Below are positions 3,922-43,904 of a stretch of DNA of 64,000 nt, in pieces. The translations under genes were made by a program, and so were the position numbers. Numbering within the stretch: position 1 is the stretch's first letter; every line of letters starts with the position of its first letter. The DNA is from Candidatus Saccharimonadales bacterium (GTDB taxonomy: Bacteria > Patescibacteriota > Saccharimonadia > QS-5-54-17): assembly GCA_040876925.1 (NCBI GenBank), contig JBBDOS010000004.1, forward strand, positions 37,330 through 101,329, written 5' to 3'. The notes under the pieces were generated by a model. It saw nothing but the letters and a program-made list of their open reading frames with translations, ran no database searches and was not told the DNA's origin.

Positions 3922-3939
3922 TGAAAAGTATCTTAGGAA

Positions 3940-4257
3940 TTAAGATTTGATATCAGTTATCTTGATAGTGCTATAGTTTTGCCTGTGACCGGTTTTCTTA
4001 GATACTCGTTTCTTAGCTTTGAACTTAAAGATAGTTATTTTATCACCCTTAACTCTTGGTTCAACAACTTTAGCTGTGACTTTCACGCCTTTAACTGTAG
4101 GGGTGCCAATTTGCACGCTTTTATCGTCCTTATCATCAAAAACCAATAGAGGGTCAAAGCTTAGTTGTTTCTTCACATCTACTAGCTCTATATTGAATTC
4201 TTGGTTTTTGGCAACCAAATATTGTTTGCCACCAGTTTCTATAACTGCTTGCTTCAT
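3940..4257 (-). CDS. rplU: 50S ribosomal protein L21 with basic C-terminal extension
   Basis: MKQAVIETGGKQYLV... matches the L21 N-terminus (AVIxTGGKQY). C-terminal KKRVSKKTGHRQNYSTIKITDI is the L21 hallmark. Confidence 0.9.
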   Translation of the reverse strand: MKQAVIETGGKQYLVAKNQEFNIELVDVKKQLSFDPLLVFDDKDDKSVQIGTPTVKGVKVTAKVVEPRVKGDKITIFKFKAKKRVSKKTGHRQNYSTIKITDIKS

Positions 4258-4464
4258 AATTTATTGATTCTCTTTCTTATAAACAATCGTATCATATCCT
4301 AACAGTATTACTTAGCGGTGTAAAGACCACACCAGTATTTTACTGCTTGCTATGATGATCTGTAGTTTGTTCCTGAGGTTTTTAACATTAACTACTAGTG
4401 CTTAGCCTATGCTAAAATATCAAAGAGCAATAACTTATAAAGAGAGGTTAGTAGAAATATAAAA

Positions 4465-6088: not shown

Positions 6089-6098
6089 GGCATTATAA

Positions 6099-6707
6099 TT
6101 AAAAAGCCTGCATATCTGAGACAGGCCAAAGCTTTAATGTCAGAGAACCAATTATATCCTCAGCTTTAACGGAGCCTAGTTGATTGCGTGAATCTAGCGA
6201 ATGGCCATTTTCGCGGTTATCTCCTATTAGGAATATTTCTCCTTCTGGTACGACAACATTAAGTTCTCCAGATATATCTACAGTAGGCAAATCTAACTCT
6301 TCGTAAGGATCAAACCCCGTTGGGTTGGAGTTATTATAGATAGTTACCTTACCCTCAGAGATATTAATATTATCATTAGGCAAGCCTATAACTCTTTTAA
6401 TTAAGCGATTATTATTGCCATTAACTACCACTATAGAGCCTCTTTCTGGTAGATACTCATTCCCCCTTAGTTCTGATAGCGAAGGACCTAGTTTAGAAAT
6501 TATTAGGTAGTCACCCTGACTTAATGTAGGCTCCATGCTAGCACCAAACACCTGATATGACTGAAACACAAACTGTTGCAAGCCGATAGCTATAGTAATA
6601 GCTACTATCCAAGAGATAACAATCTTAATGAAAGCCAGGTTGTGTTTAGTTTCGCTAGTCTTTGCCGCGTCTGTTTCGGTTTGGTAGTTTAGTTCGTTAT
6701 TATCCAT
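6099..6707 (-). CDS. lepB: signal peptidase I (S26)
   Basis: GASMEPTL catalytic Ser box and GDNRENGHSLDSR box; N-terminal TM anchor. Confidence 0.9.
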   Translation of the reverse strand: MDNNELNYQTETDAAKTSETKHNLAFIKIVISWIVAITIAIGLQQFVFQSYQVFGASMEPTLSQGDYLIISKLGPSLSELRGNEYLPERGSIVVVNGNNNRLIKRVIGLPNDNINISEGKVTIYNNSNPTGFDPYEELDLPTVDISGELNVVVPEGEIFLIGDNRENGHSLDSRNQLGSVKAEDIIGSLTLKLWPVSDMQAF

Positions 6708-29048: not shown

Positions 29049-29060
29049 TTTTTAAATACT

Positions 29061-30386
29061 ATGAGCAAGGTAGCAATCCTAGGATTTGGCATAGAAGGTA
29101 AGTCTGCTTATCTCTATTTTAAGTCTTTAGATCATGAGATTACTATCTGTGATAACAATGAGGATTTAGAGTTGCCTGCAGGGGTCAACTCTCAATTAGG
29201 AGCTAACTATTTAGATAACTTAGACAAATTTGATTTAATCATCAGATCTCCAGGAGTGTTGCCATATAGTTTTGAGACTAAAACCGAAGTCACTACTGTT
29301 ATGAATGAGTTTTTAGCTAGAGCTAGAGCCAAAAAGATAATAGGTGTGACTGGCAGTAAGGGTAAAGGCACTACGACAGCTCTTATTGATGAGATACTAA
29401 AAACTGCTGATTTAAGCACTTTTCTTGGTGGCAATATCGGCACTCCACCACTAGATTTTATCAATCAAGTTACAGTAGATGATTATGTTGTCTTAGAGAT
29501 GAGTAATTTACAGCTTTGGGATATTAAACACAGTCCAGATATTGCAGTGCTATTAATGATAACTGCTGATCATATGGATTGGCACAGAGGCAATATGGAT
29601 GAGTACGTGGCTATTAAAGGTAATATTACTAAATTTCAAGATAGTAATGGCTTACTTATCCATCACCCCAGCAATGAATATGTTTTAAATATAGCTAGAA
29701 GTAGTAAAGCTAGAGCCAGGAAGTTTCTGGATGTTCAGTCTGCCTGGGTTGATAAGGGCATGATTATGTATCAGACTAAAGCGATTTGTAGCAGAGATGA
29801 AATTAACTTAATCGGTGATCACAATTTAGAGAATGTCTGTGCAGCTATAGCTGCTAGTTGGGATATATTAATGGATGAACTGGGAGATGAGACTAAGACG
29901 ATAGCAGTGCTAAAAGAAGCTCTCAAAAGCTATCAAGGATTACCTCATAGACTAGAGTTAATAACCCAAAAAGGCGAGATTAGATTCTATGATGATTCTA
30001 TCGGCACTACTCCCGAAGCTACCATAGCAGCAATTAGAGCTTTTAATGAAGATAAAGCTTTGATTATGGGTGGGTCAGATAAAGGAACAGACTTTGATGA
30101 ACTAGCTAAAGTTATCGCAGCTGATAAACAGATTAAATCAATATCACTAATTGGCAGTACGACTACTAAGATTAAAAAGTCTTTATTAGCAGCCAGTTAT
30201 AGTGGTGAGCTTCACGAGGTTGCCGGCAACGCTAATGAGGTGATGCTGAAGGCTGTATATCTAGCCAATTCATCCTTAGCAGGTAAGGGGGTAGTGCTAT
30301 TAGCGCCAGCCTGTGCTAGCTTTGATTTATTCAAGGACTATCAGGCAAGAGGCGAAGAATTTAAAAACGCTGTAGCCAGTATTTAG
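29061..30386 (+). CDS. murD: UDP-N-acetylmuramoyl-L-alanine--D-glutamate ligase
   Basis: MurD N-terminal Rossmann (VAILGFGIEGKS), Mur ligase P-loop (GVTGSKGKGTT) and C-terminal domain. Located outside the dcw cluster. Confidence 0.85.
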   Translation: MSKVAILGFGIEGKSAYLYFKSLDHEITICDNNEDLELPAGVNSQLGANYLDNLDKFDLIIRSPGVLPYSFETKTEVTTVMNEFLARARAKKIIGVTGSKGKGTTTALIDEILKTADLSTFLGGNIGTPPLDFINQVTVDDYVVLEMSNLQLWDIKHSPDIAVLLMITADHMDWHRGNMDEYVAIKGNITKFQDSNGLLIHHPSNEYVLNIARSSKARARKFLDVQSAWVDKGMIMYQTKAICSRDEINLIGDHNLENVCAAIAASWDILMDELGDETKTIAVLKEALKSYQGLPHRLELITQKGEIRFYDDSIGTTPEATIAAIRAFNEDKALIMGGSDKGTDFDELAKVIAADKQIKSISLIGSTTTKIKKSLLAASYSGELHEVAGNANEVMLKAVYLANSSLAGKGVVLLAPACASFDLFKDYQARGEEFKNAVASI

Positions 30387-30463
30387 ACGATGCTTTAGAA
30401 TGTATAAAACAGCTTAAAAATACCCCCTAGTATTTAATTAGGGGCAGGAGAGGTATTCTTTTC

Positions 30464-31723
30464 ATGAAACACAATATTAAAGAAATAACGCTCAAGAATG
30501 GAGCTAAGGGACTACTTATTAATGTGCCAGGAGCTTCGGTAGTGAGAATGTTAGTCGAGTTTCGGGCGGGATTTGATCTAGGCAGTCAAGATAAGTATGA
30601 GTTACCTCACGTTACAGAGCATATGATGTTTACTAATAAGGCTTATCCAAAGCCTAGAGCTTTTTCTAGAGAGATTGAAAAGAACGGCGCTATTAATAAC
30701 GCTTCCACAAGTTCTACTAGCCTAAAGTATTTTTATGAATGTGCTAACTTTGAAGCAGAAAGGATAGCAGATTTGCTATCTATTCAAATAGCTCAACCAC
30801 TTTTTGACGAGAAAGAACTAAAAACTGAACTAGGTAACGTAGCCGAAGAATTAAGTTCTTATATATCCAACCCAGCTTACGCTAGCGGCTATAACTTAAG
30901 GGTTGCTGCTGAAGGGGAGCCCACTTTAGAAACTAGAATAGAGCAACTATCTAGCGTTAAAGCTGAGGATCTATATAGCTATTATGATAAAACTCACTCA
31001 GCCGATAATATGCGCTTTATTATTGCAGGTGATCAAGGGTTAGAATCTATATCAAATCAGCTTGCTGAATCCGGCCTAAAATCAGGCAAGAGATTAGATC
31101 TGCCAGAGATTCCTACCAAGCATGTAGATAAACCAGTAGTTGAAATTAGGGATATACCGCAAATTTATTACCAGCTCTTTAGCGCTCACAACAAACCTTT
31201 GAGTTACAGGCAGTTAGTAGCTGCTAGGATACTATCAGGATTGTTATCCGATGGTTTCAGTTCTACTTTACTAGGTTTAGCTAGAGAGAAGGGTTTGGTG
31301 TATGGTATGTACACCGATATAGAGTCAAGTAACTATAACTCTGGATTTATGATGGGTGGCTCCGTATCGCCTAGTAATATCGATGAATATATTGATTTAG
31401 TTGTTGATGAGATAAGCAAGGTTCTAAGAGGCGAGGTAGATGCCGACCACTTTGAATCTACTAAGAAGCTATTACTAGGCCAGCGAGCTTTGCAGTATCA
31501 GAAACTAAGTAATTTAGTTAGTTATTACGATTCTTACTTTACTATAGGGTATCAGCCATTTAATGAATTTAATAAGCTTATAGAAGAAGTTAGTTTAGAG
31601 GAGGCGATCCAGGAGTTTAACAAACTGTTTGCTCAAAAAACCTGGGGGGTTAGCTTCTTAGGTAATATAGATGATAAGCAGGCTGCCAAACACTACAAGA
31701 AACTAGCTAGTATCTGGAGATAG
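30464..31723 (+). CDS. M16 family (pitrilysin/insulinase-like) zinc peptidase
   Basis: Inverted zinc motif HxxEH (HVTEHMMF) near the N-terminus; two-lobed M16 architecture. Confidence 0.75.
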   Translation: MKHNIKEITLKNGAKGLLINVPGASVVRMLVEFRAGFDLGSQDKYELPHVTEHMMFTNKAYPKPRAFSREIEKNGAINNASTSSTSLKYFYECANFEAERIADLLSIQIAQPLFDEKELKTELGNVAEELSSYISNPAYASGYNLRVAAEGEPTLETRIEQLSSVKAEDLYSYYDKTHSADNMRFIIAGDQGLESISNQLAESGLKSGKRLDLPEIPTKHVDKPVVEIRDIPQIYYQLFSAHNKPLSYRQLVAARILSGLLSDGFSSTLLGLAREKGLVYGMYTDIESSNYNSGFMMGGSVSPSNIDEYIDLVVDEISKVLRGEVDADHFESTKKLLLGQRALQYQKLSNLVSYYDSYFTIGYQPFNEFNKLIEEVSLEEAIQEFNKLFAQKTWGVSFLGNIDDKQAAKHYKKLASIWR

Positions 31724-31993
31724 AACACAATTTAATTAGCGTAATAAACCCCAGTGATTTATAAAAGTATTCAAATTATTATTTAGGGATAAAATACTTT
31801 ACTCAAATTATATATTATCCATACTTAGTTTACTTGACAGTATGGTATAAAAATGTTAATGTTTTAATATCTATTCGTAAAGTGTGAGGTGGAGACCAAA
31901 GCATTTACGACCCTAGAGGTCTTTGACAAGCTACATATTTGTAAATTATATCTGTTATATTAAGATATTGTTCGCTATTTAGTATATGTAGTT

Positions 31994-32046
31994 CAAAAGC
32001 AGAACACTGTAGGCTATTTAAGGTTGTCTTTAGTGTTCTGCTTTTG
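31994..32046. other. long hairpin in the 560-bp noncoding region (15-bp perfect stems CAAAAGCAGAACACT / AGTGTTCTGCTTTTG, 23-nt loop)
   Basis: Inverted repeat seen directly. Could be a terminator for the M16 gene or a structured RNA element. Confidence 0.4.
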
Positions 32047-32151
32047 GCTTATATGCTAAGAGCAATATTTAAGTGACCGATATGTATTTTTGTATTTTTC
32101 CATAACTTTAAATGTTTCTTCTTCTATAGAGGCAAGGAGCAGCACTGTATT

Positions 32152-32172
32152 GCAAACTATTAATTAGTTTGC
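32152..32172. promoter_or_regulatory. palindrome GCAAACTA-ttaat-TAGTTTGC (8-bp arms) at the left edge of the island
   Basis: Perfect inverted repeat seen directly; candidate operator or protein-binding site. Confidence 0.35.
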
Positions 32173-32238
32173 GGTATGTTGCTGTTCCTTACCCTGTGGG
32201 GGTCCGAGGAAAGGTAGTTAGAAAGCCTAACTACCCTT

Positions 32239-32258
32239 GATGCATTAACATGCATCAC
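32239..32258. promoter_or_regulatory. palindrome TGATGCAT-taac-ATGCATCA (8-bp perfect arms) 27 nt upstream of island ORF1
   Basis: Perfect inverted repeat immediately upstream of the GGGGGAG RBS and ATG at 32285; candidate operator. Confidence 0.4.
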
Positions 32259-32284
32259 AGCAGACTCCCAGAAGGGGGAGAGAC

Positions 32285-32731
32285 ATGACTGTCGAGAACA
32301 ACACCAGGCCAATCACCAACGCCGAGATGCGTGAGCGGTTCGATCACTTCGAGCAGATTCTTGAGCGCAGGAGTCGGTGGTATCGTTTGCGTAGCTGGTT
32401 CAGTACTCGTAATGAGGGTCGAGCCAGGCTCAACAAAACCAGTCTCCGTGAGAGACTGGCAAACAGAGATTCCGTTCAGCTGAACGGCAAGCTGCTTCCA
32501 TTGGCTGTTAGCGCAGTCCTTGGTTTGCTAGCTGGTTGGATCGCTGTCCGGATCGGTCTGAGTCTTTCCGACCGAGTTGCTGAAATTGCTGGTACCAGCC
32601 TTGGCTGGCTGGCTCTTCAGCAGATCGTCATCACGATTTTGGCGATACTCATCGGTATCTACACGTTTCGATGGGTGCTGAACTACTTCAAGGAAGACCA
32701 ACTCGAGGAATCTAACAACGATTCCTCCTGA
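32285..32731 (+). CDS. hypothetical 2-TM membrane protein encoded in the GC-rich island
   Basis: 148 aa with a basic N-terminal region (RRSRWYRLRSWFSTRNEGRARL) and two hydrophobic helices. Strong RBS. Confidence 0.6.
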   Translation: MTVENNTRPITNAEMRERFDHFEQILERRSRWYRLRSWFSTRNEGRARLNKTSLRERLANRDSVQLNGKLLPLAVSAVLGLLAGWIAVRIGLSLSDRVAEIAGTSLGWLALQQIVITILAILIGIYTFRWVLNYFKEDQLEESNNDSS

Positions 32732-32753
32732 AGATCACCAAGGAGGTGACAGC

Positions 32754-33845
32754 ATGAAGCGCATATTGGCGCTAGTCGGGGTGCTGCTGCTAGTTGCAGC
32801 CATCCCGCTCGTCACCATCTTTGGTGGTGACGATGAACCCGTCATTGATCAGGCTGAATCCGAAGTGGAGTCAGAGCCTGATCCCGAATCAGAACCCGAA
32901 CCAGAACCCGAACCAGCATCCGAATCAGGGTGTCTGACGTGGGAATCGGTTGAGGGTAACCACGACAACAACAGGTGGTTTGGTGATGGCATTGCAAGCA
33001 TTCTAGAAGCACAAACGCGTGAGGATGCTCGTAATGCAGCCGATGAATTCTTGGGGCTGGTTAAGCACCATCCCAACCTACTCGTGGCAACGACTCGTTA
33101 TTTCCTTGACCGTGAGGTTGAGGCAGTTGAGTTGTTCGATCGAGACGACTGTGCTACAAATGAGGCTGAAGTTCTCGTAGCTGAACTAGAGATAGTTCTG
33201 GCCGCGAGTGATATCTCAGTTGATGAAGCACCGTCTGATGGGTACAACTCTGGTGTAGATGAGCATGGAACGGCTGGTGTATCAACTCACCCCGGAATTA
33301 CTGGTAACCGTCAGGCTATCAAGATTGTGAAGCCTGATGGTACGGTGATTTGGATTATGGGTAGGTGCGGTAACATCGTCGTTACTGAGCCTCCGCCAGA
33401 TCTACCCGAGGTTCCAACAGATGAACCGCCTCCGAAGGAGGTCAAGGACCCAAGCGAGGATGTTTTGTTGAATCCAGACGTCCCAGATAGGGTTCGAGGT
33501 CCATCTGGAGGAAGTGGGTGCGGTGATAAGCCCTGTGAGGTTGATGCTCCTGAAGCTGATCCTGACAGGACGCCGCCGTCAACCGACTCTCCTGAACCAC
33601 CACCTCCAGAACCTGGCGGCTATGAGCAGCCAGACTCTTCTGATGGTGGAGGTTCTCCTGGCGGTGGAGACGATTCAGTCGTTTCTGAGCCAGATGATGA
33701 TGCAGATGACAACCCCGAGCAGGATGACTCTAAGGAGCCATCTCCAGGTACGTCATCTGACACTTCCAACGATGCTGATTCAGACGACGCAAAGACGCCT
33801 GAGTCAGACGAAACCAATCAGTCAGGAGATCCTGGAATGCCCTAG
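32754..33845 (+). CDS. secreted/anchored acidic Pro-Glu-Ser-Asp-rich protein encoded in the GC-rich island
   Basis: N-terminal signal/anchor (MKRILALVGVLLLVAAIPLV), then an (EPEP)n linker, a globular segment with Cys residues, and a long acidic/proline low-complexity tail. No LPxTG. Confidence 0.6.
   Translation: MKRILALVGVLLLVAAIPLVTIFGGDDEPVIDQAESEVESEPDPESEPEPEPEPASESGCLTWESVEGNHDNNRWFGDGIASILEAQTREDARNAADEFLGLVKHHPNLLVATTRYFLDREVEAVELFDRDDCATNEAEVLVAELEIVLAASDISVDEAPSDGYNSGVDEHGTAGVSTHPGITGNRQAIKIVKPDGTVIWIMGRCGNIVVTEPPPDLPEVPTDEPPPKEVKDPSEDVLLNPDVPDRVRGPSGGSGCGDKPCEVDAPEADPDRTPPSTDSPEPPPPEPGGYEQPDSSDGGGSPGGGDDSVVSEPDDDADDNPEQDDSKEPSPGTSSDTSNDADSDDAKTPESDETNQSGDPGMP
32852..32927 (+). repeat. 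tandem hexanucleotide-type repeats encoding the (S/E-P-E/D)n linker
   Basis: GAGTCAGAGCCTGATCCCGAATCAGAACCCGAACCAGAACCCGAACCAGCATCCGAATCA seen directly. Confidence 0.6.
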
Positions 33846-34131
33846 CGGCTCACCAGCGGTTTCCTATGAGTAATGGAGATACATGGATCATATCGGGTCA
33901 CTGCGTGCTACTGGGGCAATCTTTTGTTTTAAAGGGCTAACACCTCTTTGATAAAAAACAAAAGACCCCCAGTAGCCGCATTACCCTAAATAGTTTTCAA
34001 ATATGTAGTTTGTTGAAGTGTAAATCCTAGAGGGAAAGAGCACATTAATAAGCCAAACCTAGAGAAGAGATACATTAAACAATTAGAAACTTTTAGTATT
34101 TTAAGTAAATTCCCTATGAAAGGAGAATGAT

Positions 34132-35439
34132 ATGAATATAAGAAATATATTAAACTATATCAGCTATGTTCCTAAGTCATTTACAGCTATAGCCGCAGCA
34201 CTTGTGGTTACTGTAATGCCTATAGCAACTATGGCTGGTTTTGGTCCGGATAGACCAACTTTTAGCATTAACGATCCAGCAGATTACGTAACTTTCAACT
34301 CTATTACCGATAATCCAAATTATGGTGATGAGAGATACTTCTTTGATGGTAAGCCTGCTAGTGACACTAGTACAGGCGGCTTCTCTGACCCTATAGAAAT
34401 AGGTGATTTAGACGATGGTGATGAGCTATTGCTACGTGTATACGTACACAACAACGCCAAAGAAAGTCTAAACGATAGCGGTGAAGGTATTGCCAAGAAC
34501 ACTCATGTTAGAGTAGATCTACCTAACAATACCGATAGATCACTACGTGCTACTGCTAGCATTTCAGCTGATAATGCTAACCCAGGTACGGTATATGACA
34601 CATTAGACTTTACTAGTGCTAATAGACCATTCAACCTAGATTACGTTGCTGATTCAGCTGTGATTCATACTAATGCTGTGCCAAGCGGTATGAATCTAAG
34701 TGATGACATCATCACTTCTAACGGAGCTAAGATAGGATACGATAAACTTAATGGTGAAGTGCCTGGATGCTTTGAATTTACAGGTATAGTAACCTTAAAG
34801 GTTAAAGTTAACAAAGCGGACGTAGAAGTCGATAAGTTTGTTCGTAAGCTAGGTGAAACTGAGTGGAAAACTGAAAATAATGCTAAGCCTGGAGACACGC
34901 TTGAGTATTTGATACGCATGAAAAACTCAGGTAGCACTACTCTTAAAGATGTCATGGTAGGCGATAATCTACCTAAGTACACTTCATATGTAGAAGGCAC
35001 CACTATGTTGAAAAACATGAACAACCCTAACGGTATTAGTATCGACAACGATAATATTACCAAGGGAGGTATCAATATAGGTCACTATGAACCTGGATCT
35101 GTAGCGTATGTATGGTTCCAGGCCAAAGTCGATCCTGTAGGAGTATTCGATAAGTGTGGAGACTATACTATCCGCAATGTTGGCGTAGTACGTCCTGAGG
35201 ATATGAATGAGTTCTTCAACACTGCAGATACCAATGTCACTATTAAGTGTGAAGTGACTCCGACAGGTGCACCTCCTGAAGATGTTCCTGAAGATGTTCC
35301 AGAAGGCGTTCCAGAAGAATTGCCACAAACTGGTATAGGTGGCATCTTCGGTGGATTGATAGGTAGTGGAGCTCTAGGTATCGGCTTAAGAAGCTGGATA
35401 GGTTCCAGAAGGAAGTTTATCGACTCTTTAATGAGTTAA
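34132..35439 (+). CDS. cell-surface protein with DUF11-like repeat domain and C-terminal LPQTG sorting signal
   Basis: N-terminal signal region. A DUF11-like segment (KPGDTLEYLIRMKNSGSTTLKDVMVGDNLPKYTSYVEGTT) lies at about 34837-35122. A PEDVPEDVPEGVPEE linker precedes LPQTG (35320-35334), followed by the hydrophobic IGGIFGGLIGSGALGIGL and a basic RSWIGSRRKF tail. Confidence 0.8.
   Translation: MNIRNILNYISYVPKSFTAIAAALVVTVMPIATMAGFGPDRPTFSINDPADYVTFNSITDNPNYGDERYFFDGKPASDTSTGGFSDPIEIGDLDDGDELLLRVYVHNNAKESLNDSGEGIAKNTHVRVDLPNNTDRSLRATASISADNANPGTVYDTLDFTSANRPFNLDYVADSAVIHTNAVPSGMNLSDDIITSNGAKIGYDKLNGEVPGCFEFTGIVTLKVKVNKADVEVDKFVRKLGETEWKTENNAKPGDTLEYLIRMKNSGSTTLKDVMVGDNLPKYTSYVEGTTMLKNMNNPNGISIDNDNITKGGINIGHYEPGSVAYVWFQAKVDPVGVFDKCGDYTIRNVGVVRPEDMNEFFNTADTNVTIKCEVTPTGAPPEDVPEDVPEGVPEELPQTGIGGIFGGLIGSGALGIGLRSWIGSRRKFIDSLMS
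35275..35316 (+). repeat. tandem 12-mer repeats (CCTGAAGATGTT x2, CCAGAAGGCGTT, CCAGAAGAA) encoding the PEDV linker
   Basis: Seen directly in the coding sequence just before the LPQTG motif. Confidence 0.55.
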
Positions 35440-35460
35440 TAGATAAAGACTTCTAAAAGA

Positions 35461-35512
35461 CCTAGATCGGCTCTAGGTAAGCACCCCTGTTTTGCAGGGG
35501 TGCTTTTAATTT
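35461..35512 (+). terminator. rho-independent terminator (tandem hairpins: CCTAGA-tcggc-TCTAGG, then AAGCACCCCTG-ttttg-CAGGGGTGCTT followed by TTTTAATTT)
   Basis: GC-rich 11-bp stem with a T-tract 22 nt after the stop of the LPQTG protein. Confidence 0.8.
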
Positions 35513-35588
35513 AACTACATCTAGTTAAATATTTAGCAAGAATAGCCCAATAACAGGGTTAGAGATGATATACATGGAATGCATATAT

Positions 35589-35617
35589 TTGACAAAAGCA
35601 TAAGTAGATAGTATAAT
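35589..35617 (+). promoter_or_regulatory. consensus sigma70 promoter (-35 TTGACA, 17-nt spacer, -10 TATAAT) for the PKD/LAQTG surface-protein gene
   Basis: TTGACA at 35589-35594 and TATAAT at 35612-35617. The leader contains a small hairpin (GGTGT-gaaggagttt-ACACC) holding an SD-like AAGGAG in its loop, then the true AAGGAGG RBS. Confidence 0.7.
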
Positions 35618-35671
35618 ATAGAACATTAACCAAGGTGTGAAGGAGTTTACACCACAAGGAGGTTTTAAGAG

Positions 35672-36742
35672 ATGTTAAAGAATCTAAGAATTAAGAACTA
35701 CATTTTAGTTATAGCTTTGTTTCTAGCTGGTATATTAGGAGTTGTTAGTATAGGTAGCTCTTTTGCAGCTAGTGATAATGATATTGTTTATGGTGGTGTT
35801 TCTAATCAAACTGATCTACGCAACAAGTTTAATAATGGCGATGGACACAACTCAGCTGCTAATATCCAAGCCATCTATCGTGAAGCTATTGGCGTAAAGA
35901 AATCTACTGAAATGAGCGGTATGAGCTGGGGCTATGTTTACCGTGACGGTAGGGTGGTAGTTGATGGTAAGACGGTAGCCACTAATGCTAAAAGCTCAGG
36001 TAGATTAAACTTCCGCAACTCTAAACCATTGGGTGATACCGGTGCTTTCTACCATGATACCGATATTCGCTTCAGTTCAGGCACTAATAAGCTACGTGCA
36101 CTAATAAAGCTCGATAGTAATGGTAAGTATAAGTTTGCTGTTATAGCTAATTGTGGTAACCCAGTTATTGCTAAACCAGTTCCAGTTCCTGAGCCAGACC
36201 CAGAACCTGAGCCAGACCCTGAACCAGAACCAGAACCAGAACCTAAGCCTGAACCTAAGCCACAACCACAAGCTAGCTTCGTGTGCGATAGCTTAAGTAT
36301 TAATAAGCAACAGGTTAATCCTGGTGATAGAGTTGTCTTTACAGCTAGTTCTAGCAGGAATAACACTAGCCTAGAGGACTACAGCTACCATTTCGGTGAC
36401 GGTGAGGTTCTAACTACTAGACGTAATATGATTTCATATAGTTACAGCGAGCCAGGTACTTACACAGCTTATGTCATAGTTAATACTGATGCCGGCAGTA
36501 CTCAGCCAACCAGTATTTGTGAAGTAACCGTGCAGGTATTAGCTGAGGAAATACCAGAAACACCAGAAGAGTCTACATCTGAGCCAAAAGCACCAGAGAA
36601 GCTAGAAGAAGCTCCTGAAGAGCTAGCGCAAACAGGTGTTGGTAGTGGTTTACTAGGTCTAATGGGTAGCGGTATTCTAGGTGCTACTGTCCAAGGCTTT
36701 AGGATGACCCGCAAAAAGTTTCTAGACACTATATTGGGCTAG
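35672..36742 (+). CDS. cell-surface protein with PKD-like domain and C-terminal LAQTG sorting signal
   Basis: Signal peptide (ends ...SSFAASDN). A PVPVPEPDPEPEPDPEPEPEPEPKPEPKPQPQ linker is followed by a PKD-like segment (YHFGDGEV...EPGTYTAYVIVNTDAGS, about 36278-36542). The tail carries PEEL-AQTG (36623-36637), the hydrophobic VGSGLLGLMGSGILGATV and the basic RMTRKKF. Confidence 0.8.
   Translation: MLKNLRIKNYILVIALFLAGILGVVSIGSSFAASDNDIVYGGVSNQTDLRNKFNNGDGHNSAANIQAIYREAIGVKKSTEMSGMSWGYVYRDGRVVVDGKTVATNAKSSGRLNFRNSKPLGDTGAFYHDTDIRFSSGTNKLRALIKLDSNGKYKFAVIANCGNPVIAKPVPVPEPDPEPEPDPEPEPEPEPKPEPKPQPQASFVCDSLSINKQQVNPGDRVVFTASSSRNNTSLEDYSYHFGDGEVLTTRRNMISYSYSEPGTYTAYVIVNTDAGSTQPTSICEVTVQVLAEEIPETPEESTSEPKAPEKLEEAPEELAQTGVGSGLLGLMGSGILGATVQGFRMTRKKFLDTILG
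36170..36270 (+). repeat. tandem hexanucleotide repeats encoding the (PE/PD/PK)n linker
   Basis: GAGCCAGACCCAGAACCTGAGCCAGACCCTGAACCAGAACCAGAACCAGAACCTAAGCCTGAACCTAAGCCACAACCACAA seen directly. The opposite strand gives the spurious (GS)n ORF 36049-36366. Confidence 0.65.
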
Positions 36743-36762
36743 TTTAACTTAGCCCAATATAG
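36729..36762 (+). terminator. hairpin overlapping the stop codon (13-bp perfect stems CTATATTGGGCTA / TAGCCCAATATAG, 8-nt loop)
   Basis: Seen directly. No clear U-tract follows, so this may be a terminator or an mRNA-stabilising hairpin. Confidence 0.5.
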
Positions 36763-36818
36763 CTAGGGGCTACCTAAATTGTAGGTATCTAATATATACT
36801 GATATCTTAAGTAGTCTT

Positions 36819-37904
36819 ATGCATGAATTAAGTAAAGAACTAGAGATATTATTAGATCGGACTGATCAAGCTATGGATCAGTTGGATATTGCTGCTAAAA
36901 AACAAACAGTTGTTGATTTGGAAACAGAAATGGCTAGTCCTGATTTCTGGAATGATTCTGATCTAGCTGCTACAAAGTCCAAAGAACATGCCGATCTCAA
37001 AGACCAAGTCAATCAATGGCAAGATCTAAGAGATGATATAGCTGGTGCTATAGAGATGGCTGAACTGGAAGATCATTCATTACTCAAAGATTTAGAGGCG
37101 CAACATGAACAGCTTAAAGAGCGCTTCGAGAAGAAGGAGTTTGAAGTTAAGTTATCTGGTAAATATGATAAGAATGACGCTATCATTCATATTCATAGTG
37201 GTACTGGCGGTACCGATGCTCAGGACTGGGCGCAGATGTTAGAGAGAATGTATTTAAAGTACGGCGAAAAAACCAATCTTGAATCTGAAGTTATTAGTGA
37301 ATCAGTTGGAGACGAGGCCGGAATCAAAAGTGCTATCCTGCGTCTAAGCGGTCTATATGCCTATGGGCGTCTGCAGTCCGAGCACGGAGTCCATAGACTA
37401 GTCCGCTTATCTCCATTCAATGCTGATAACTTGCGTCAGACTAGCTTTGCTTTGGTGGAAGTTACTCCTGATATATCAGAGCCTAAAGACATAGAGATTG
37501 ACGAAAAGGACTTACGAGTTGATGTCTACCGTGCCGGTGGTAAAGGTGGCCAGTCAGTCAATACCACTGATTCTGCAGTACGTATTACCCATATACCTAC
37601 CAATATTACAGTAGCTATTCAGAACGAAAGATCTCAGCTTCAAAACAAAGAAGCTGCCATGAAAGTTTTACGAGCTAGATTAGCTCAGCTGCAGCATGAA
37701 CAGCACGAAGAGGCAATCAGTAAACTCAAAGGTCCTAGCCATACTCAGCAGTGGGGTCAGCAGATAAGGAACTATGTCTTACACCCCTATACATTAGTGA
37801 AAGACACTCGGACAAATTTTGAGACTAACAATGTCGATAGGGTGCTTGATGGTGACTTGGACGATTTTATAGACGCCTACTTAACTTATAATATATCGTC
37901 TTAA
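36819..37904 (+). CDS. prfB: peptide chain release factor 2 (single uninterrupted ORF, no programmed +1 frameshift)
   Basis: RF2-specific SPF tripeptide (RLSPFNADN) and GGQ (GKGGQSVNTTDSAVRITHIPT). The full-length 361-aa ORF starts at ATG 36819. Confidence 0.92.
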   Translation: MHELSKELEILLDRTDQAMDQLDIAAKKQTVVDLETEMASPDFWNDSDLAATKSKEHADLKDQVNQWQDLRDDIAGAIEMAELEDHSLLKDLEAQHEQLKERFEKKEFEVKLSGKYDKNDAIIHIHSGTGGTDAQDWAQMLERMYLKYGEKTNLESEVISESVGDEAGIKSAILRLSGLYAYGRLQSEHGVHRLVRLSPFNADNLRQTSFALVEVTPDISEPKDIEIDEKDLRVDVYRAGGKGGQSVNTTDSAVRITHIPTNITVAIQNERSQLQNKEAAMKVLRARLAQLQHEQHEEAISKLKGPSHTQQWGQQIRNYVLHPYTLVKDTRTNFETNNVDRVLDGDLDDFIDAYLTYNISS

Positions 37905-37938
37905 GGACACTTACTTATACCGCCCCGCCTATGCTAAT

Positions 37939-38625
37939 ATGATAGGCGTGATATTACTTGATAGATTATCAAAATCATATGGAAAATCCGTGGCTCTAGA
38001 ACGGGTAGATTTACATATCCATCCCAAAGAGTTTGTTACGGTAGTAGGCCGTAGTGGAGCTGGCAAATCGACCCTTATAAAGTTACTTATACAAGAAGAA
38101 AAACACAGCTCCGGCAAGATTATAGTTGGCGGGGTAGATTACGATAATTTGAAGCGTCGTGATATACCAAAATTGAGGCGTAAAATAGGGGTAGTATTTC
38201 AGGACTTTAAGCTACTTAACAATCGCAATATCTATGAAAATGTAGCTTTTGCATTAGAGATTACCGGTACTAGACCTAGTGTCATTAAACATACTGTACC
38301 AAAAGTAATTAAACTGGTCGGGCTAGAAGGTAAAGAGAGGAACTTTCCTCATGAGATATCTGGCGGAGAGAAACAGAGGGTAGCTATAGCTAGGGCGATT
38401 GTACGCCAACCCAATATATTAATAGCCGATGAACCAACCGGCAACTTAGACCCCAAGCATTCCTGGGATATTATAGAGCTGCTACTAAAGATTAATCGTT
38501 ATGGTACGACTGTAATTCTAACCACTCACAATCGTGATATTGTTAACGCTCTGCAGAGAAGGGTGGTAACTTTGCGTGACGGTAAAGTAGCTAACGATGA
38601 AGAAAGAGGTAGTTATGAAGTATAG
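37939..38625 (+). CDS. ftsE: cell-division ABC transporter ATP-binding protein FtsE
   Basis: Walker A GRSGAGKST, ABC signature ISGGEKQRVAIARA and Walker B ILIADEPT. Paired with ftsX. Confidence 0.9.
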   Translation: MIGVILLDRLSKSYGKSVALERVDLHIHPKEFVTVVGRSGAGKSTLIKLLIQEEKHSSGKIIVGGVDYDNLKRRDIPKLRRKIGVVFQDFKLLNNRNIYENVAFALEITGTRPSVIKHTVPKVIKLVGLEGKERNFPHEISGGEKQRVAIARAIVRQPNILIADEPTGNLDPKHSWDIIELLLKINRYGTTVILTTHNRDIVNALQRRVVTLRDGKVANDEERGSYEV

Positions 38626-38640
38626 GGGAGAGATTAAGCT

Positions 38641-39573
38641 ATGCTAAAGACCCTGCTTAGAAAATTACTAATGCTCTGGAGGGTGATTACCTCAGGTACA
38701 CGTAACTTCTTTCGTAACGCCTGGTTAAGCGTAGCGGCTACTACTGTCATGGTGATCACTCTCACTATTATATTAGGGGCCGTAGTTTTGAACATGGCTT
38801 TAGGAGATACTCTGGATAAGATTACTGAGTCGATCGATATAGCCATATTTTTTAATGACGATGCGCCGATGAGTATGGTTAATCAACTACAAAACGACTT
38901 AGAAGAGTTAGATAATGTTACCGGAACAGAGTATATATCTAAAGATGACGCTCTAAGACAGTATCGACTAGACAATATTGACAACCAAGATGTATTAGAT
39001 GCTGTCACTGAAGGGGACAATCCACTGCCTACCAGTTTAGAGGTGCAGGTTCAAGACTTACAGCTGATCGATGAAATTATCATGCTCACTCAGGAGGATC
39101 AATACTTAACTATTATTGAAGATACTTCATTAGGAGAAGATAGACGCAGAACTATAGAGAGGATAGCTGATACTAGGCAGTTCTTAATTACTGCCGGCAT
39201 AGCTGCCAGTCTGATATTTGCTAGCGTATCAGTATTAATTATCTTCAACACTATTCGTATGGCTATATTCGCTAGAGGGGATGAGATTAGTATTATGCGT
39301 TTAGTCGGTGCCACTAATGGATTTATTAGAGGGCCGTTCTTATTCGAAGCCATACTAGATGGATTAATCGCTGCTAGTATTAGTTTGGGGCTGGTTTACT
39401 TACTATTATTTAGGGGAGCTACCAGAATAGTTAATGACTTTATTAGTTTTGATGCTACCATTGCGTTCTTTAGCGATCAGTGGCTGCTAGTAGTGCTAGC
39501 TACCTTAGCAGCTGGAGCATTGATAGGTGTTATCTCCTCGATGATGGCCATGGTTAGGTATCTAAAGCTATAG
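38641..39573 (+). CDS. ftsX: cell-division permease-like protein FtsX
   Basis: 4-TM FtsX topology with a large extracellular loop between TM1 and TM2; directly follows ftsE. Confidence 0.85.
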   Translation: MLKTLLRKLLMLWRVITSGTRNFFRNAWLSVAATTVMVITLTIILGAVVLNMALGDTLDKITESIDIAIFFNDDAPMSMVNQLQNDLEELDNVTGTEYISKDDALRQYRLDNIDNQDVLDAVTEGDNPLPTSLEVQVQDLQLIDEIIMLTQEDQYLTIIEDTSLGEDRRRTIERIADTRQFLITAGIAASLIFASVSVLIIFNTIRMAIFARGDEISIMRLVGATNGFIRGPFLFEAILDGLIAASISLGLVYLLLFRGATRIVNDFISFDATIAFFSDQWLLVVLATLAAGALIGVISSMMAMVRYLKL

Positions 39574-39714
39574 CTTTAAGGGGCTTATAAAAAGCATACA
39601 AAGTTAGGCAGTTGTTTGTATTAGTGCTTATGCTATAATCTATGGCCTAGCCTTTACTAATTTGAATAAGTTTTTTAAACATAACCTAAGCTGGTTTATT
39701 TAGCGTAACAACTA

Positions 39715-39743
39715 TTGATTTGTTAGCAATAATTTGGTAATAT
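39715..39743 (+). promoter_or_regulatory. sigma70-like promoter (-35 TTGATT, 17-nt spacer, -10 TAATAT) for the CHAP hydrolase gene
   Basis: Motifs seen at 39715-39720 and 39738-39743. This implies that the TTG start at 39734 in the ORF track is upstream of the transcript start. Confidence 0.5.
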
Positions 39744-39760
39744 CTTGGAGTAATGTACTA

Positions 39761-40933
39761 ATGTTAATTAGTAAATATATGAAAACAAAAACTATCAAAC
39801 TCAAAAGTATTATTTCTATTGTGGCAATTTTCGCCCTACTTATAGGGTTTTATTCTGATGTGTTTGCGCAGAATCTGAGTAATATACATAGGCAAATAGA
39901 ATCTGTTAATAGAGAAATTAGCCAATCAGAGAGTCGCATAGAAGAATTAAGGCGGAGAGAGAATACGCTACAAAATCGGTTAGCTGTATTAGATGCCGAA
40001 GCCAGACAATTAGAGCAAGAGATAAGTCGTACCAAAACAGAAATAACTAAAACTCGAGCAGAGATTACAGAAAAAGAAAAGGAACTAGCTCGCACCAAAG
40101 AAATGATTCAAGAGAGTGCCAAGACTCTATACAAGCAGGGCGACCCATCGACAATAGAGATATTATTCTCTAGCGAAAACTTTACCGACTTTATTAATAA
40201 GCGAGAATATCTGGATAGGGTTAAAACTAGCTTGAATGAGGCAGCTAAGGAGGCAGTATTGCTTAAAGGAGAGTTGGAAGAAAAAGAGACAGAACTTAAC
40301 TTTAAGTCTCGTGAGCTCAGTGGACAACGAGTACAATTAACTAGTCGACAAGAAGAACAAAAACGACTAATAGAAGAAACACAAGGAGAAGAATCTCGCT
40401 ATCAAGAGATTGTAGAGAATCAACGCGGAGAGCTGCAAAGACTTGAAGAGGAGCAAAGGCGAGCATATGATCGGTTCTTAAATAATTTCAATCCAGAGAC
40501 TCGCCCTGGAGATCCCAGTAGGGGTAGCTATCCAGACAAATGGCACAATGCACCTATAAATTCTATGGCGGATGATTGGGGTATGTTTAACAGACAATGT
40601 ACAAGCTATGCTGCTTGGAGAGTAGCTAACGATGGCAAATTTATGCCTAGGTGGGGTAATATACACCCATTTCCGAGAGGTAATGCTCGTTACTGGCCAA
40701 CACATGCCATTAGCGACGATATACCAGTAAATAATACTCCAAAGATTGGAGCAATAGCAGTTTGGGGACCAAATCAGTTTGGTATGAGTAGTATGGGTCA
40801 CCTAGCTTATGTAGAACAAGTTAATGGTGACGGCTCCATCTGGGTGAGTCAGTATAATGTTATAGCTGGTCAATATAATGAAATGAGAGTTCCTAGTTCG
40901 CAGGCACCTAATCTAAGATATATTCATTTTTAG
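39761..40933 (+). CDS. PcsB-like secreted peptidoglycan hydrolase (N-terminal coiled-coil plus C-terminal CHAP domain)
   Basis: Signal peptide (MKTKTIKLKSIISIVAIFALLIGFYSDVFAQN). About 200 aa of coiled-coil follow (EELRRRENTLQNRLAVLDAEARQLEQEI...). The CHAP domain has catalytic Cys (NRQCTSYAAWRV) and His (GHLAYVEQV). Start placed at ATG 39761; ATG 39779 is an alternative. Confidence 0.8.
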   Translation: MLISKYMKTKTIKLKSIISIVAIFALLIGFYSDVFAQNLSNIHRQIESVNREISQSESRIEELRRRENTLQNRLAVLDAEARQLEQEISRTKTEITKTRAEITEKEKELARTKEMIQESAKTLYKQGDPSTIEILFSSENFTDFINKREYLDRVKTSLNEAAKEAVLLKGELEEKETELNFKSRELSGQRVQLTSRQEEQKRLIEETQGEESRYQEIVENQRGELQRLEEEQRRAYDRFLNNFNPETRPGDPSRGSYPDKWHNAPINSMADDWGMFNRQCTSYAAWRVANDGKFMPRWGNIHPFPRGNARYWPTHAISDDIPVNNTPKIGAIAVWGPNQFGMSSMGHLAYVEQVNGDGSIWVSQYNVIAGQYNEMRVPSSQAPNLRYIHF

Positions 40934-40988
40934 GTTGTTGGCCTAATTATATTTAAGCAACACATCCATAACGCTCATGCTACAATAG

Positions 40989-42224
40989 TTGCTAGTGGAA
41001 GAGAGATTAAACCAACTAGACGATAGAGATTCAAATAGAGGCAAGAAGCCAGGCTTTGGTTTAGCCTCAGTTATCGCTATAGCAGTACTTGTAGGGTCTT
41101 TAGGCTTTGTACTGGGTACGAATGTTGATCAGCTTGGTATAAGCAGGCAATACGAAACTCAGAATGAGGATTTACCAGAGAGCCTAGACTATAGCTCTAT
41201 AGATAGACTATATGACTTGTTGCGTGAAAACTATGCTGGTGACTTAAGTCTAGAAGATCTAATGCTAGGACTGAAGCAGGGCTTAATTAATGCTACTGGC
41301 GATCCTTTTACGGAATATTTAACGGCCGAAGAAGCTAAGGAGTTTCATAATAGCTTGAACGGTGAATTTAGTGGTGTAGGCATAGAGATAGGCATTAGAG
41401 ATGACCGTTTAGTAGTAATTGCTCCTATAGCAGACACACCGGCTGATAAGGCGGGTCTAAGAGCAGGAGACGCTATAGTAGCTATTGGTGAGGAAGATGC
41501 TACTGATATGGGCTTACAAACAGCCGTAAGTAAAATTAGGGGTGAAGATGGTACTGAGGTGACTTTAACTATCAGTCGAGAAGGTGAAGAGCTGCAAGAT
41601 ATAACAATAACCAGGGGTTTGATAGAGGTTCCTAGTGTAGATTCAGAGGTGTTAGCCAGTAATATCGGCTATATTAAGCTAAGTAGGTTTGGTAGCGATA
41701 CTGCCAGTGACTTCCGTAAGGCGGCTCAAGAGCTAGTAGATCAAGGAGCTAGCAGTATAGTTCTAGATATGCGCAATAACCCAGGGGGATACTTTGATGC
41801 AGCTATCGGTGTAGCTAGTGAGTTCCTTGAGACCGGTGAGGCAGTAGTAGAGGAGCGTCGCGGCGATGAAGTCATAGCTACTGAAAGAGCCAGAAATAGC
41901 GGTAGCCTCATAGGATTACCGGTAATAGTGCTAGTCAATGGTGGTTCAGCTAGCTCTAGTGAGATTGTCTCTGGAGCTCTGGGCGATCATGAAGTAGCAA
42001 CTATTGTTGGTGAGCAAACTTTTGGTAAGGGTAGTGTCCAGCAACTTATAGAGGTTGGGGATGGTAGTAGTCTAAGAGTTACTATAGCTAACTGGTATAC
42101 TCCCTCAGGTCTTAATATTAGCGATTCTGGTGTTACACCAGATGAGGTAGTAGAGATGAGCCAAGAAGATTTTGAATCTGGATTAGACCCCCAGCTTGAT
42201 AGAGCTATAGAAATACTTGAGTAA
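40989..42224 (+). CDS. ctpA: C-terminal processing (tail-specific) protease, S41 family, with PDZ domain
   Basis: PDZ segment (GVGIEIG...DTPADKAGLRAGDAIVAI), S41 catalytic Ser box (GGSASSSEIVSGAL) and Lys box (TFGKGSVQ). Confidence 0.85.
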   Translation: MLVEERLNQLDDRDSNRGKKPGFGLASVIAIAVLVGSLGFVLGTNVDQLGISRQYETQNEDLPESLDYSSIDRLYDLLRENYAGDLSLEDLMLGLKQGLINATGDPFTEYLTAEEAKEFHNSLNGEFSGVGIEIGIRDDRLVVIAPIADTPADKAGLRAGDAIVAIGEEDATDMGLQTAVSKIRGEDGTEVTLTISREGEELQDITITRGLIEVPSVDSEVLASNIGYIKLSRFGSDTASDFRKAAQELVDQGASSIVLDMRNNPGGYFDAAIGVASEFLETGEAVVEERRGDEVIATERARNSGSLIGLPVIVLVNGGSASSSEIVSGALGDHEVATIVGEQTFGKGSVQQLIEVGDGSSLRVTIANWYTPSGLNISDSGVTPDEVVEMSQEDFESGLDPQLDRAIEILE

Positions 42225-42299
42225 TTAATATTTAACTAGTTTTATGACAAACTTATTGTTAATATAGGGGCATAGAAATACAAGGAGTGGTGTTAAGTT

Positions 42300-43904
42300 T
42301 TGGCTAACAAAGATACGAAATACATATTCGTAACAGGTGGAGTGTTGTCTGGAGTAGGCAAAGGTATTACGGCTGCGTCTTTAGGTAAGATACTAAAGAG
42401 TCGGGGCTTGAGTGTTAATATCCAAAAATGTGATCCATATTTAAATACCGATGCTGGTACTCTAAACCCCGCTGAGCACGGTGAGGTATTTGTAACAGGT
42501 GATGGTGCGGAGACAGATCTAGACCTAGGTCACTACGAGAGATTTCTCGATCAAGAGTTAAATAAATATAGCTCACTAATGAGCGGTAGAATTTTAAGCA
42601 GAGTCATTAAAGCCGAGAGAGCTGGTGAGTATTTAGGCAAGACGGTTCAGATTATCCCCCATATTACTGATGCTATACAAGATGAGATAGCTAGATCAGC
42701 TAGTGGATATGATGTTCACATAGTAGAGATTGGCGGTACGGTAGGAGATTATGAGAGTTTAAGTTTCCTAGAAGCTATTCGTGAATTCAAACAACGTGCA
42801 GGGGTAGATAATGTAGCTTATGTACATGTGGTCTATATGCCTTACCTAGAAGCTAGCAAGGAAGTTAAGACTAAGCCAGCTCAAAGTGCTGTTAGGACTC
42901 TACGTGGGTATGGTATTAGCCCCGATATATTAGTAGCCAGAACAGAAAGGGAAGTTAACAGCAATATCTTAGATAAGCTCAGCATGTTTGCTGATGTGCC
43001 TAAAGAAGGTATATGCATAGCTCCAACTGTAGATAGTGTTTATGAAGTTCCTCTCATAATGAGCGATATAGCTAATTATGCTATAGACAAACTATCCCTG
43101 AAGGTAGGAAAAGAAGATCTCAAATCCTGGGAAAAGCTAGTTGCCACTGCTAAGAATCAAGATTTACCTAAAGTAAAAGTCGGCGTAGTGGCTAAGTATA
43201 TGGATCATGAAGACACCTATATGAGCGTCTTTGAGGCTATTAAGGCAGCAGCTTGGCATTATGACCTGCAACCAGAAATTATCTGGATTGATGCCGAAAA
43301 AGCCGCCGAGAAACTACCAGTTGAAGAACTAGAAGAGTTAGATGGTCTTATAGTACCCGGTGGTTTTGGTAGTCGTGGGGTAGAGGGAAAAATTAAAGTT
43401 GCTGCTTGGGCCAAAGAGAATAACAAGCCATACTTGGGTCTTTGTTTGGGTATGCAGGTAGCTGCTATCGTGATAGCTCGTGAGGCTATAGATCAATCAG
43501 CTAACTCTACAGAATTTGATAACAATACATCCTGTCCGGTTATTAGTCTAATGGCTGATCAGGAAGAAGTAGTAGATTTCGGTGGTACCATGAGACTAGG
43601 TAATTGGGAGTGTAGTTTGCAGAAAGGGTCTCTAGCTAGATCTCTGTATGGTCAAGATACCATCTTTGAGCGTCATAGGCATCGTTATGAATTTAATAAC
43701 ACCTATAGAGACCAGCTAGCAGAGGCTGGGGTAGTCTTTTCCGGCTTATCACCAGATGGCAAATTAGTCGAAGTTATGGAGCTCAAAAACCACCCATTCT
43801 TTATAGCTAGTCAATTCCACCCAGAATTCTCATCAAGACCCGGTAATCCCAATCCGCTATTTAAGGGCTTTATTCAGGCAGCCAGTAAACAGGCCAATAA
43901 CTGA
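42300..43904 (+). CDS. pyrG: CTP synthase (TTG start)
   Basis: N-terminal synthetase domain (KYIFVTGGVLSGVGKGITAASLG, GGTVGDYESLSFLEAIRE). C-terminal glutamine amidotransferase has catalytic Cys (LGLCLGMQ) and His (HRHRYEFN). TTG at 42300 follows an AAGGAG RBS. Confidence 0.93.
   Translation: MANKDTKYIFVTGGVLSGVGKGITAASLGKILKSRGLSVNIQKCDPYLNTDAGTLNPAEHGEVFVTGDGAETDLDLGHYERFLDQELNKYSSLMSGRILSRVIKAERAGEYLGKTVQIIPHITDAIQDEIARSASGYDVHIVEIGGTVGDYESLSFLEAIREFKQRAGVDNVAYVHVVYMPYLEASKEVKTKPAQSAVRTLRGYGISPDILVARTEREVNSNILDKLSMFADVPKEGICIAPTVDSVYEVPLIMSDIANYAIDKLSLKVGKEDLKSWEKLVATAKNQDLPKVKVGVVAKYMDHEDTYMSVFEAIKAAAWHYDLQPEIIWIDAEKAAEKLPVEELEELDGLIVPGGFGSRGVEGKIKVAAWAKENNKPYLGLCLGMQVAAIVIAREAIDQSANSTEFDNNTSCPVISLMADQEEVVDFGGTMRLGNWECSLQKGSLARSLYGQDTIFERHRHRYEFNNTYRDQLAEAGVVFSGLSPDGKLVEVMELKNHPFFIASQFHPEFSSRPGNPNPLFKGFIQAASKQANN

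Follow-up and report, generated by a model that had tools for sequence, protein, structure and literature searches.

A coiled-coil CHAP hydrolase encoded between ftsEX and ctpA in Saccharimonadales as part of a probable FtsEX-controlled wall-remodelling module

Introduction

In most model bacteria the partner of FtsEX is encoded away from ftsEX and therefore had to be found genetically. To our knowledge, pcsB of Streptococcus pneumoniae is not adjacent to ftsEX, and we know of no linkage between the RipC gene and ftsEX in Mycobacterium tuberculosis. Here, we describe a locus where ftsE and ftsX are followed by the gene of a secreted hydrolase, made of a coiled coil and a CHAP domain, and by ctpA. 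It lies in a 64-kb stretch of DNA (hereafter, the window) of a Candidatus Saccharimonadales bacterium (contig JBBDOS010000004.1, positions 37,330 to 101,329).

The closest described systems provide the terms of the comparison. In Listeria monocytogenes, ftsE (lmo2507), ftsX (lmo2506), cwlO (lmo2505) and the gene of the LytM protein Lmo2504 have consecutive locus tags, and mutations in ftsE, ftsX or cwlO each suppress the same eslB defect and are alike in growth assays (PMC9593813). In Bacillus subtilis, the S41 protease gene ctpB comes after ftsEX (PMC5072692), and FtsEX-CwlO requires the cofactors SweC and SweD (PMC6705773). The contacts of FtsX with EnvC are at the C-terminus of helix I and the N-terminus of helix II, and in EnvC a restraining helix comes after the coiled coil; equivalent FtsX sites and an Ala-rich helix were predicted in PcsB (PMC7668044). 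The latter has a short regulatory helix beside its CHAP domain and is reported to be a D-iGln-Lys endopeptidase (bioRxiv 10.1101/2025.05.23.655736). A membrane-proximal contact site with FtsX was described for RipC (PMC11627006). Finally, degradation of wall endopeptidases by S41 proteases is known from Pseudomonas, Acinetobacter and Escherichia coli (PMC12772221). Our literature search for Saccharibacteria or Patescibacteria with FtsEX, PcsB or CHAP retrieved passing mentions of FtsX and no paper on this locus, and automated annotation already gives relatives the names 'CwlO-like' or 'EnvC'.

Results

Our analysis suggests that ftsE, ftsX, the hydrolase gene and ctpA probably constitute a cell-wall remodelling module of a monoderm Saccharimonadales bacterium, which FtsEX would control by way of the coiled coil. 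The four genes are on the + strand. The gene ftsE (37939-38625) encodes the ATPase of the FtsEX ATP-binding cassette (ABC) complex and ftsX (38641-39573) its membrane subunit, with an extracellular domain between the first and second transmembrane helices (around amino acids (aa) 52-172). After a spacer of 205 nucleotides (nt) at 39574-39778 comes the gene of the secreted peptidoglycan hydrolase (39779-40933, 384 aa, in a longest open reading frame of 399 aa at 39734-40933), and then ctpA (40989-42224), coding for an S41 C-terminal processing protease. Residue numbers of the hydrolase are counted from the ATG at 39779.

The gene order is conserved in relatives. We took the best 80 of at least 592 relatives, obtained in a scan with one genome per species and almost all Saccharibacteria, and counted the loci with enough flanking DNA, scoring ftsX when it was on the same strand and at most 2 kb upstream. 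The hydrolase gene was preceded by ftsX in 69 of 71 loci, which couples it genomically to ftsEX, and followed by ctpA in 67 of 69, so that the conservation of gene order in relatives, which the earlier note had proposed to check, holds across the class. The hydrolases of these loci share no more than 29-46% identity with that of the window; that the order was kept despite this divergence indicates that the arrangement is old and has been maintained. Six diverged homologues that we looked up tell the same: wherever the contig extends far enough, the hydrolase is between ftsX and ctpA. In several genomes this interval contains tandem coiled-coil hydrolase genes, either CHAP with CHAP or M23 with CHAP (L003/L004 at 3733-4923 and 5001-6197, L008 at 238-2719, L022, L060, L062, L067 and L078). 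The window has a single copy, and a tblastn search of its 64 kb for an M23 paralogue, using the M23 relatives P0032 and P0015 as queries, matched nothing but the coiled coil encoded by the CHAP gene.

The identification of FtsE and FtsX is straightforward. FtsE scores above the cut-off of the TIGR02673 FtsE equivalog (271.4 vs 264.85 bits), and its translation has the Walker A (GRSGAGKST), signature (ISGGEKQR), Walker B (ILIADEPTG) and H-loop (TTHN) motifs. FtsX has four transmembrane helices and the FtsX extracellular domain, with Pfam matches to FtsX_ECD (5.5e-16; 59.4 bits, cut-off 23.5) and FtsX (7.1e-13; 49.1 bits, cut-off 25.5). Its top NCBIfam model is that of the Gram-positive type, FtsX_Gpos, at 200.9 bits and under the cut-off of 225. 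Residues 35-308 align full length with FtsX chains of solved FtsEX complexes (8hd0_C, 1.1e-16; 8tzj_C, 2.3e-15). The extracellular domain on its own gave marginal matches in the PDB (E around 0.6), among which the stretch YISKDDALRQYRLDN...NPLP aligns weakly with the E. coli X-lobe (E 0.59).

The hydrolase has an intact catalytic site. Its CHAP domain (aa 246-384, 40514-40930) matches Pfam CHAP (PF05257) at 3.5e-16 and 59.9 bits, for a cut-off of 26. The earlier note had placed the catalytic Cys in NRQCTSYAAW and the His in GHLAYVEQV, and both assignments hold. Cys274 (codon 40598-40600) and His341 (40799-40801) are invariant among 27 homologues, as is the third residue of the triad, Asn360 (40856-40858), and a second set, of 32 CHAP domains, likewise shows no variation at the three positions. 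The search for homologues of the hydrolase had returned 33 proteins, the best of which are from Saccharimonadales. A protein identical to it, from a Candidatus Saccharimonadales metagenome-assembled genome, is present at NCBI, in line with the origin of the window from a TM7 bacterium of the Candidate Phyla Radiation. Directly before the CHAP domain there is a GGYPxxW motif (aa 248-254, 40520-40540), whose Y251 and P252 are invariant in the 27 homologues; it occupies the position of the short regulatory helix in PcsB. In comparisons with the PDB, the profile of the CHAP domain alone matched 2k3a, 2lrj, 5t1q and the CHAP domain of PcsB, 9r6w, with higher scores for the staphylococcal SsaA-type domains (65 and 61 bits) than for PcsB (53 bits). 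CHAP domains also rank first in a Foldseek search with the model of the protein (5t1q, E 4e-9).

The coiled coil is an antiparallel hairpin (aa 31-235, 39869-40483) N-terminal to the catalytic domain, as expected for this functional class of hydrolases. In the AlphaFold2 model (mean predicted local distance difference test (pLDDT) of 82, predicted TM-score (pTM) of 0.48), helices at 6-119 and 135-235 connect through a short linker helix at 125-131 and are followed by a linker and the CHAP domain; pLDDT reaches 97 in the hairpin. The two parts named in the earlier note, about 200 aa of N-terminal coiled coil and a CHAP domain at the C-terminus, are thus those of the model. The comparison with PcsB, which the note had likewise proposed, gives the latter (4CGK) as the best solved match of the family profile, at full length and with an E-value of 1.6e-25. 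The coiled-coil part of this profile aligns with EnvC (8hd0_E, 3.4e-11) and RipA (4.9e-6). Foldseek matched the model to 4CGK over 367 columns (E 1.3e-8, around 16% identity), to the coiled coil of the RipA N-domain (6ewy, TM-score 0.64) and more weakly to the RipC (8idc_E) and EnvC chains of FtsEX complexes. The likeness to PcsB does not extend to orthology, because the hydrolase reaches 50.9 bits with the NCBIfam PcsB equivalog (NF046104), whose cut-off is 450. Judged from its sequence, it is PcsB-like in architecture and not an orthologue of PcsB.

Conservation within the coiled coil singles out two regions. We computed it, together with that of FtsX, on 71 paired sequences. The first peak is the tip of the hairpin (aa 121-145), with the motif LYK.G..ST.E.L.SS..F.DF...QEYL, and the second is the end of helix II (aa 221-230), which in relatives is Ala-rich ('AQQAAA'). 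The two peaks match the sites of EnvC that bind FtsX and form the restraining arm, and this match is the main internal argument for the mechanism proposed below. The tip (around aa 115-150, 40121-40228) is thus a putative site of docking onto FtsX. The Pfam family CC_PcsB (PF24568) reaches 26.4 bits there (aa 102-154, as counted when the gene is read as 390 aa), just under its gathering score of 27, and the M23 relative P0015 clears this score with 28.4 bits.

Several relatives have the window-type coiled coil, including the motif of the tip, fused to an M23 domain instead of CHAP. Between ftsX and ctpA, such proteins are encoded singly (L006) or beside a tandem CHAP paralogue (L008), and include P0032 (L006, 5001-6134), P0015 (L008, 238-1446), P0026-P0028 and P0034-P0152. 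In comparisons among coiled coils, that of the window (39869-40483) shares 60% identity with P0015, an M23 protein, and 29-33% with P0011 and P0020, which have CHAP, and that of P0014, a CHAP protein, shares 51-55% with P0032 and P0034, both M23 proteins. Coiled-coil identity, as far as these sequences tell, is a matter of lineage and not of catalytic domain, which implies either that the catalytic domain was exchanged within the class or that tandem paralogues evolve in concert. This pattern fits what might be expected if the coiled coil were an adaptor suited to the FtsX of its own locus. The PcsB-like architecture was probably put together in this lineage, and its resemblance to PcsB would most simply reflect convergent use of a common design.

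The family of coiled-coil M23 proteins is large (2245 proteins at E <= 1e-10) and its catalytic domain is unusual. The HxH motif comes before the HxxxD motif, with the C-terminus just after YxHL, in 115 of the 115 members for which we could place both motifs. When the domain of P0032 is compared with the canonical M23 peptidase 3slu, residues 94-144 align with 245-295 of the chain and residues 11-49 with 302-340. This inverted order of segments indicates that the M23 domain is circularly permuted. Its zinc ligands and catalytic His are invariant or nearly so, and it is modelled with pLDDT mostly between 86 and 96 (blocks from around residue 240). The best structural matches of the whole permuted-M23 protein are the EnvC chains of FtsEX complexes. 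We found no description of a permuted M23 domain in our search of the literature.

The S41 tail-specific protease that the earlier note had placed 3' of the hydrolase gene is there as well: CtpA scores 319.1 bits with TIGR00225, above the cut-off of 218.6, and has Peptidase_S41 (4.1e-49), PDZ and CtpB_N-like matches in Pfam. It has an N-terminal membrane anchor and the motifs of the Ser (GGSASSSE, aa 318) and Lys (TFGKG, aa 344) of this family.

Two statements of the earlier note on the 5' end of the hydrolase gene find no clear support. The first is that the gene has its own sigma70-like promoter (39715-39743; TTGATT, 17 nt, TAATAT), a site that agrees with the consensus at 8 of 12 positions and falls under the threshold of our scan. 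Promoter-like sites are not enriched in the region, where the consensus scan found 17 when 20.1 were expected from shuffled sequences, and a better match is provided by a perfect extended -10 element, TGCTATAAT, at 39631-39639, around 140 nt 5' of the start codon. The second is the start at 39761. The ATG at 39779 (MKTKT...) is more likely because the N-termini of homologues align there; the other in-frame starts are the ATG at 39761, which gives the 390-aa reading, and a TTG at 39734. Translation from 39779 begins with a predicted signal peptide read from the sequence (aa 1-30, 39779-39868), MKTKTIKLKSIISIVAIFALLIGFYSDVFA, which ends in VFA before a Gln. The hydrophobic stretch and the ensuing Ala-Gln or Ala-Asp junction are kept in most homologues. 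We searched the 205-nt spacer for a + strand terminator and found none, and the hypothesis of an RNA element in it was rejected, since it has no Rfam match and its folding is not unusual (z 0.30).

The module is embedded in a series of housekeeping genes. All genes between 36819 and 44347 are on the + strand, and the gaps from prfB through ftsE, ftsX, the hydrolase gene, ctpA and pyrG to the response regulator gene are of 34, 15, 205, 55, 75 and 38 nt. The gene of release factor 2, prfB (36819-37904; Pfam PCRF 1.4e-47, RF-1 2.9e-38), is the conserved neighbour 5' of ftsE in most related loci and is context outside the module; pyrG (42300-43904) and the response regulator gene come after ctpA. 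The base composition of the hydrolase gene shows nothing unusual. On a wider scale (26433-43904), the order is secA, Mur ligase, M16 peptidase, ..., prfB, ftsE, ftsX, ..., ctp, pyrG. It resembles the region of Bacillus and Listeria, which we take to run secA-prfB ... ftsEX-ctpB, and suggests that the secA-to-pyrG order is an old Firmicute-like arrangement.

Three secreted proteins are encoded before prfB. Two of them (34132-35439 and 35672-36742) are surface proteins with DUF11/CLIPPER-like and PKD domains, and in both an LPQTG or LAQTG sorting signal at the C-terminus is followed by hydrophobic and then basic residues; a long PEPEPK-type repeat is present in the second. They are probable sortase substrates, pointing to a monoderm envelope. 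The third (32754-33845) is a very acidic protein with a high content of Pro, Asp, Ser and Glu, which has no match in Pfam and explains the local rise in G+C content to 0.50 in a window otherwise around 0.39. A scan of the whole window for tRNA genes and for Rfam families at gathering score found neither.

Discussion

Our results are best explained by an FtsEX-dependent hydrolase encoded next to its regulator. From homology and synteny we infer the following mechanism. FtsE as ATPase and FtsX as membrane subunit would constitute a type VII ABC mechanotransducer, and the secreted hydrolase would dock by the conserved tip of its hairpin onto the extracellular domains of an FtsX dimer. Binding and hydrolysis of ATP by FtsE would be transmitted through the coiled coil and free the CHAP domain (Cys274-His341-Asn360) from an autoinhibited state. 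Cleavage of peptidoglycan by the domain would then be confined to the sites and times of FtsEX activity, the division septum being the most likely place, and the membrane-anchored CtpA would probably trim or degrade the hydrolase, limiting its activity. The septal site of action and the bond that would be cleaved, like the relation of CtpA to the hydrolase, we infer by the same analogy with described systems.

Several of our observations weigh against this mechanism or weaken its support. The pTM of the structural model leaves the arrangement of the domains, and hence any autoinhibition, undefined. The profile of the coiled coil alone has weak matches in the PDB (EnvC 22 bits, PcsB 20 bits), amid generic coiled coils, and cannot tell whether EnvC or PcsB is closer. 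Residues F158 and W155, by which the E. coli X-lobe makes its contacts, are not kept in the FtsX of the window, and the segment aligned with the X-lobe (aa 101-125, 38941-39015) varies more within Saccharimonadia than most of FtsX does, whereas the hairpin tip predicted to bind there is well conserved. The tip may contact the membrane-proximal site, as in RipC, instead of the X-lobe. As for the locus, the hydrolase gene may or may not be co-transcribed with ftsEX, given the 205-nt spacer, and the housekeeping order from prfB to pyrG is broadly conserved, making adjacency weaker evidence than it appears. Adjacency and analogy are also all that speaks for the role of CtpA.

The hydrolase might be controlled by FtsEX and yet have a role like that of CwlO, opening the wall for expansion instead of splitting the septum. 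No feature of the sequence specifies septal action, the closest genomic precedent, ftsE-ftsX-cwlO of Listeria, concerns an elongation hydrolase (PMC9593813), and JGI annotates one relative (P0014) as 'CwlO-like'. Yet, catalysis would fall to a CHAP domain, the type found in the division enzyme PcsB, and not to NlpC/P60, and we regard a function in elongation as unlikely, if plausible enough to be kept in mind.

The adjacency to ftsEX might also be a frozen housekeeping order, and the protein an autolysin independent of FtsEX or, given the epibiotic lifestyle, a weapon against the wall of the host. This would fit the synteny of the whole block from prfB through ftsEX and ctpA to pyrG and the response regulator gene, the promoter-like elements in the spacer, and the proximity of the CHAP domain to staphylococcal secreted or phage-tail CHAP lysins. 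It does not fit the in-register alignment of the coiled coil with the FtsX-binding ones of EnvC, PcsB and RipA, nor the fact that its most conserved segment is the tip of the hairpin. Furthermore, the slot beside ftsX is kept whether it holds CHAP, M23 or tandem copies, and loci without ftsX are exceptional (2 of 71). We give little credit to this explanation, and prefer the control by FtsEX.

The coiled coil resembles that of E. coli EnvC, which might suggest a catalytically inactive activator; the invariance of Cys274, His341 and Asn360, and the zinc ligands and catalytic His kept by M23 relatives, make this very improbable. An endolysin of a phage or mobile element that lies here by chance can be dismissed: CHAP is common in phage lysins and 79 phage records match this part of the protein, but all match within aa 230-384 (around 30-34% identity, at most 40% of the protein, when none covers 80% or more), and the housekeeping neighbours, the ordinary base composition and a position conserved in 69 of 71 genomes argue against the unrelated, unlinked phage enzyme that the earlier note had considered.

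The M23 relatives invite a broader, and more tentative, proposal, whose chances we would put slightly below even. The slot between ftsX and ctpA might be a cassette in Saccharimonadia, in which a lineage-matched coiled coil that docks onto FtsX was repeatedly re-fused to CHAP or to a permuted and catalytically intact M23 domain, sometimes in tandem pairs. The PcsB-like CHAP architecture would then be independent of streptococcal PcsB, and one FtsEX would drive two chemically different cleavages of the wall under the control of CtpA. The same adaptor with an exchanged catalytic domain, CHAP or permuted M23, is a natural experiment that could help to define the recognition of FtsX. The constant neighbour CtpA suggests a link between hydrolysis driven by FtsEX and proteolytic control. 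Finally, the Saccharibacteria encode the partner beside ftsEX across a whole class of uncultured bacteria with reduced genomes, with the consequence that their division hydrolase can be named from sequence alone.

Among known systems, PcsB of S. pneumoniae is the closest in architecture: both proteins have a signal peptide, a coiled coil of around 200 aa and a C-terminal CHAP domain with its Cys and His, and both are active enzymes instead of activators, as predicted for the hydrolase of the window from its intact residues. Unlike in PcsB, the CHAP domain of the window scores higher with staphylococcal SsaA-type domains, M23 proteins of its own lineage have the same coiled coil, and the gene adjoins ftsEX and ctpA. 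In gene order, the closest system is FtsEX-CwlO of Listeria, which shares the succession of ftsE, ftsX and coiled-coil hydrolase, three genes whose joint action is indicated by genetics in Listeria, and has an M23/LytM protein next, as in some loci of Saccharimonadia, and ftsEX-ctpB of B. subtilis has an S41 protease after ftsEX, as in the window. CwlO differs in having an NlpC/P60 catalytic domain and a role in elongation, where the hydrolase of the window has CHAP.

The coiled coil itself is best compared with EnvC of E. coli and Vibrio cholerae, which is also an antiparallel hairpin with a short linker helix. The two conservation peaks in the hydrolase of the window have as counterparts in EnvC the FtsX-binding sites at the tip and a regulatory helix that follows helix II (PMC7668044). 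The LytM domain of EnvC is inactive and activates AmiA and AmiB, whereas the hydrolase of the window, with its CHAP site intact, presumably cleaves the wall on its own. Outside Firmicutes, a precedent for a coiled-coil hydrolase that FtsEX activates directly is FtsEX-RipC of M. tuberculosis (PDB 8IDC); the coiled coils of RipA and RipC are structurally similar to that of the window, more weakly in the latter, but their catalytic domain is NlpC/P60 instead of CHAP. The model for the role that we give to CtpA comes from CtpA-LbcA of Pseudomonas aeruginosa and Prc-NlpI of E. coli, where an S41 protease sets the level of a peptidoglycan endopeptidase (PMC12772221). Both systems belong to a diderm envelope and work through a TPR lipoprotein adaptor, and no adaptor is seen at the locus of the window.

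Overall, the locus is an ordinary further example of the known coiled-coil hydrolase systems governed by FtsEX, in a phylum where they are unstudied, and the order of its genes, conserved as it is, makes it unusually informative. It leaves the known mechanism, as described from PcsB, CwlO, EnvC and RipC, unchanged and extends it to the Candidate Phyla Radiation.

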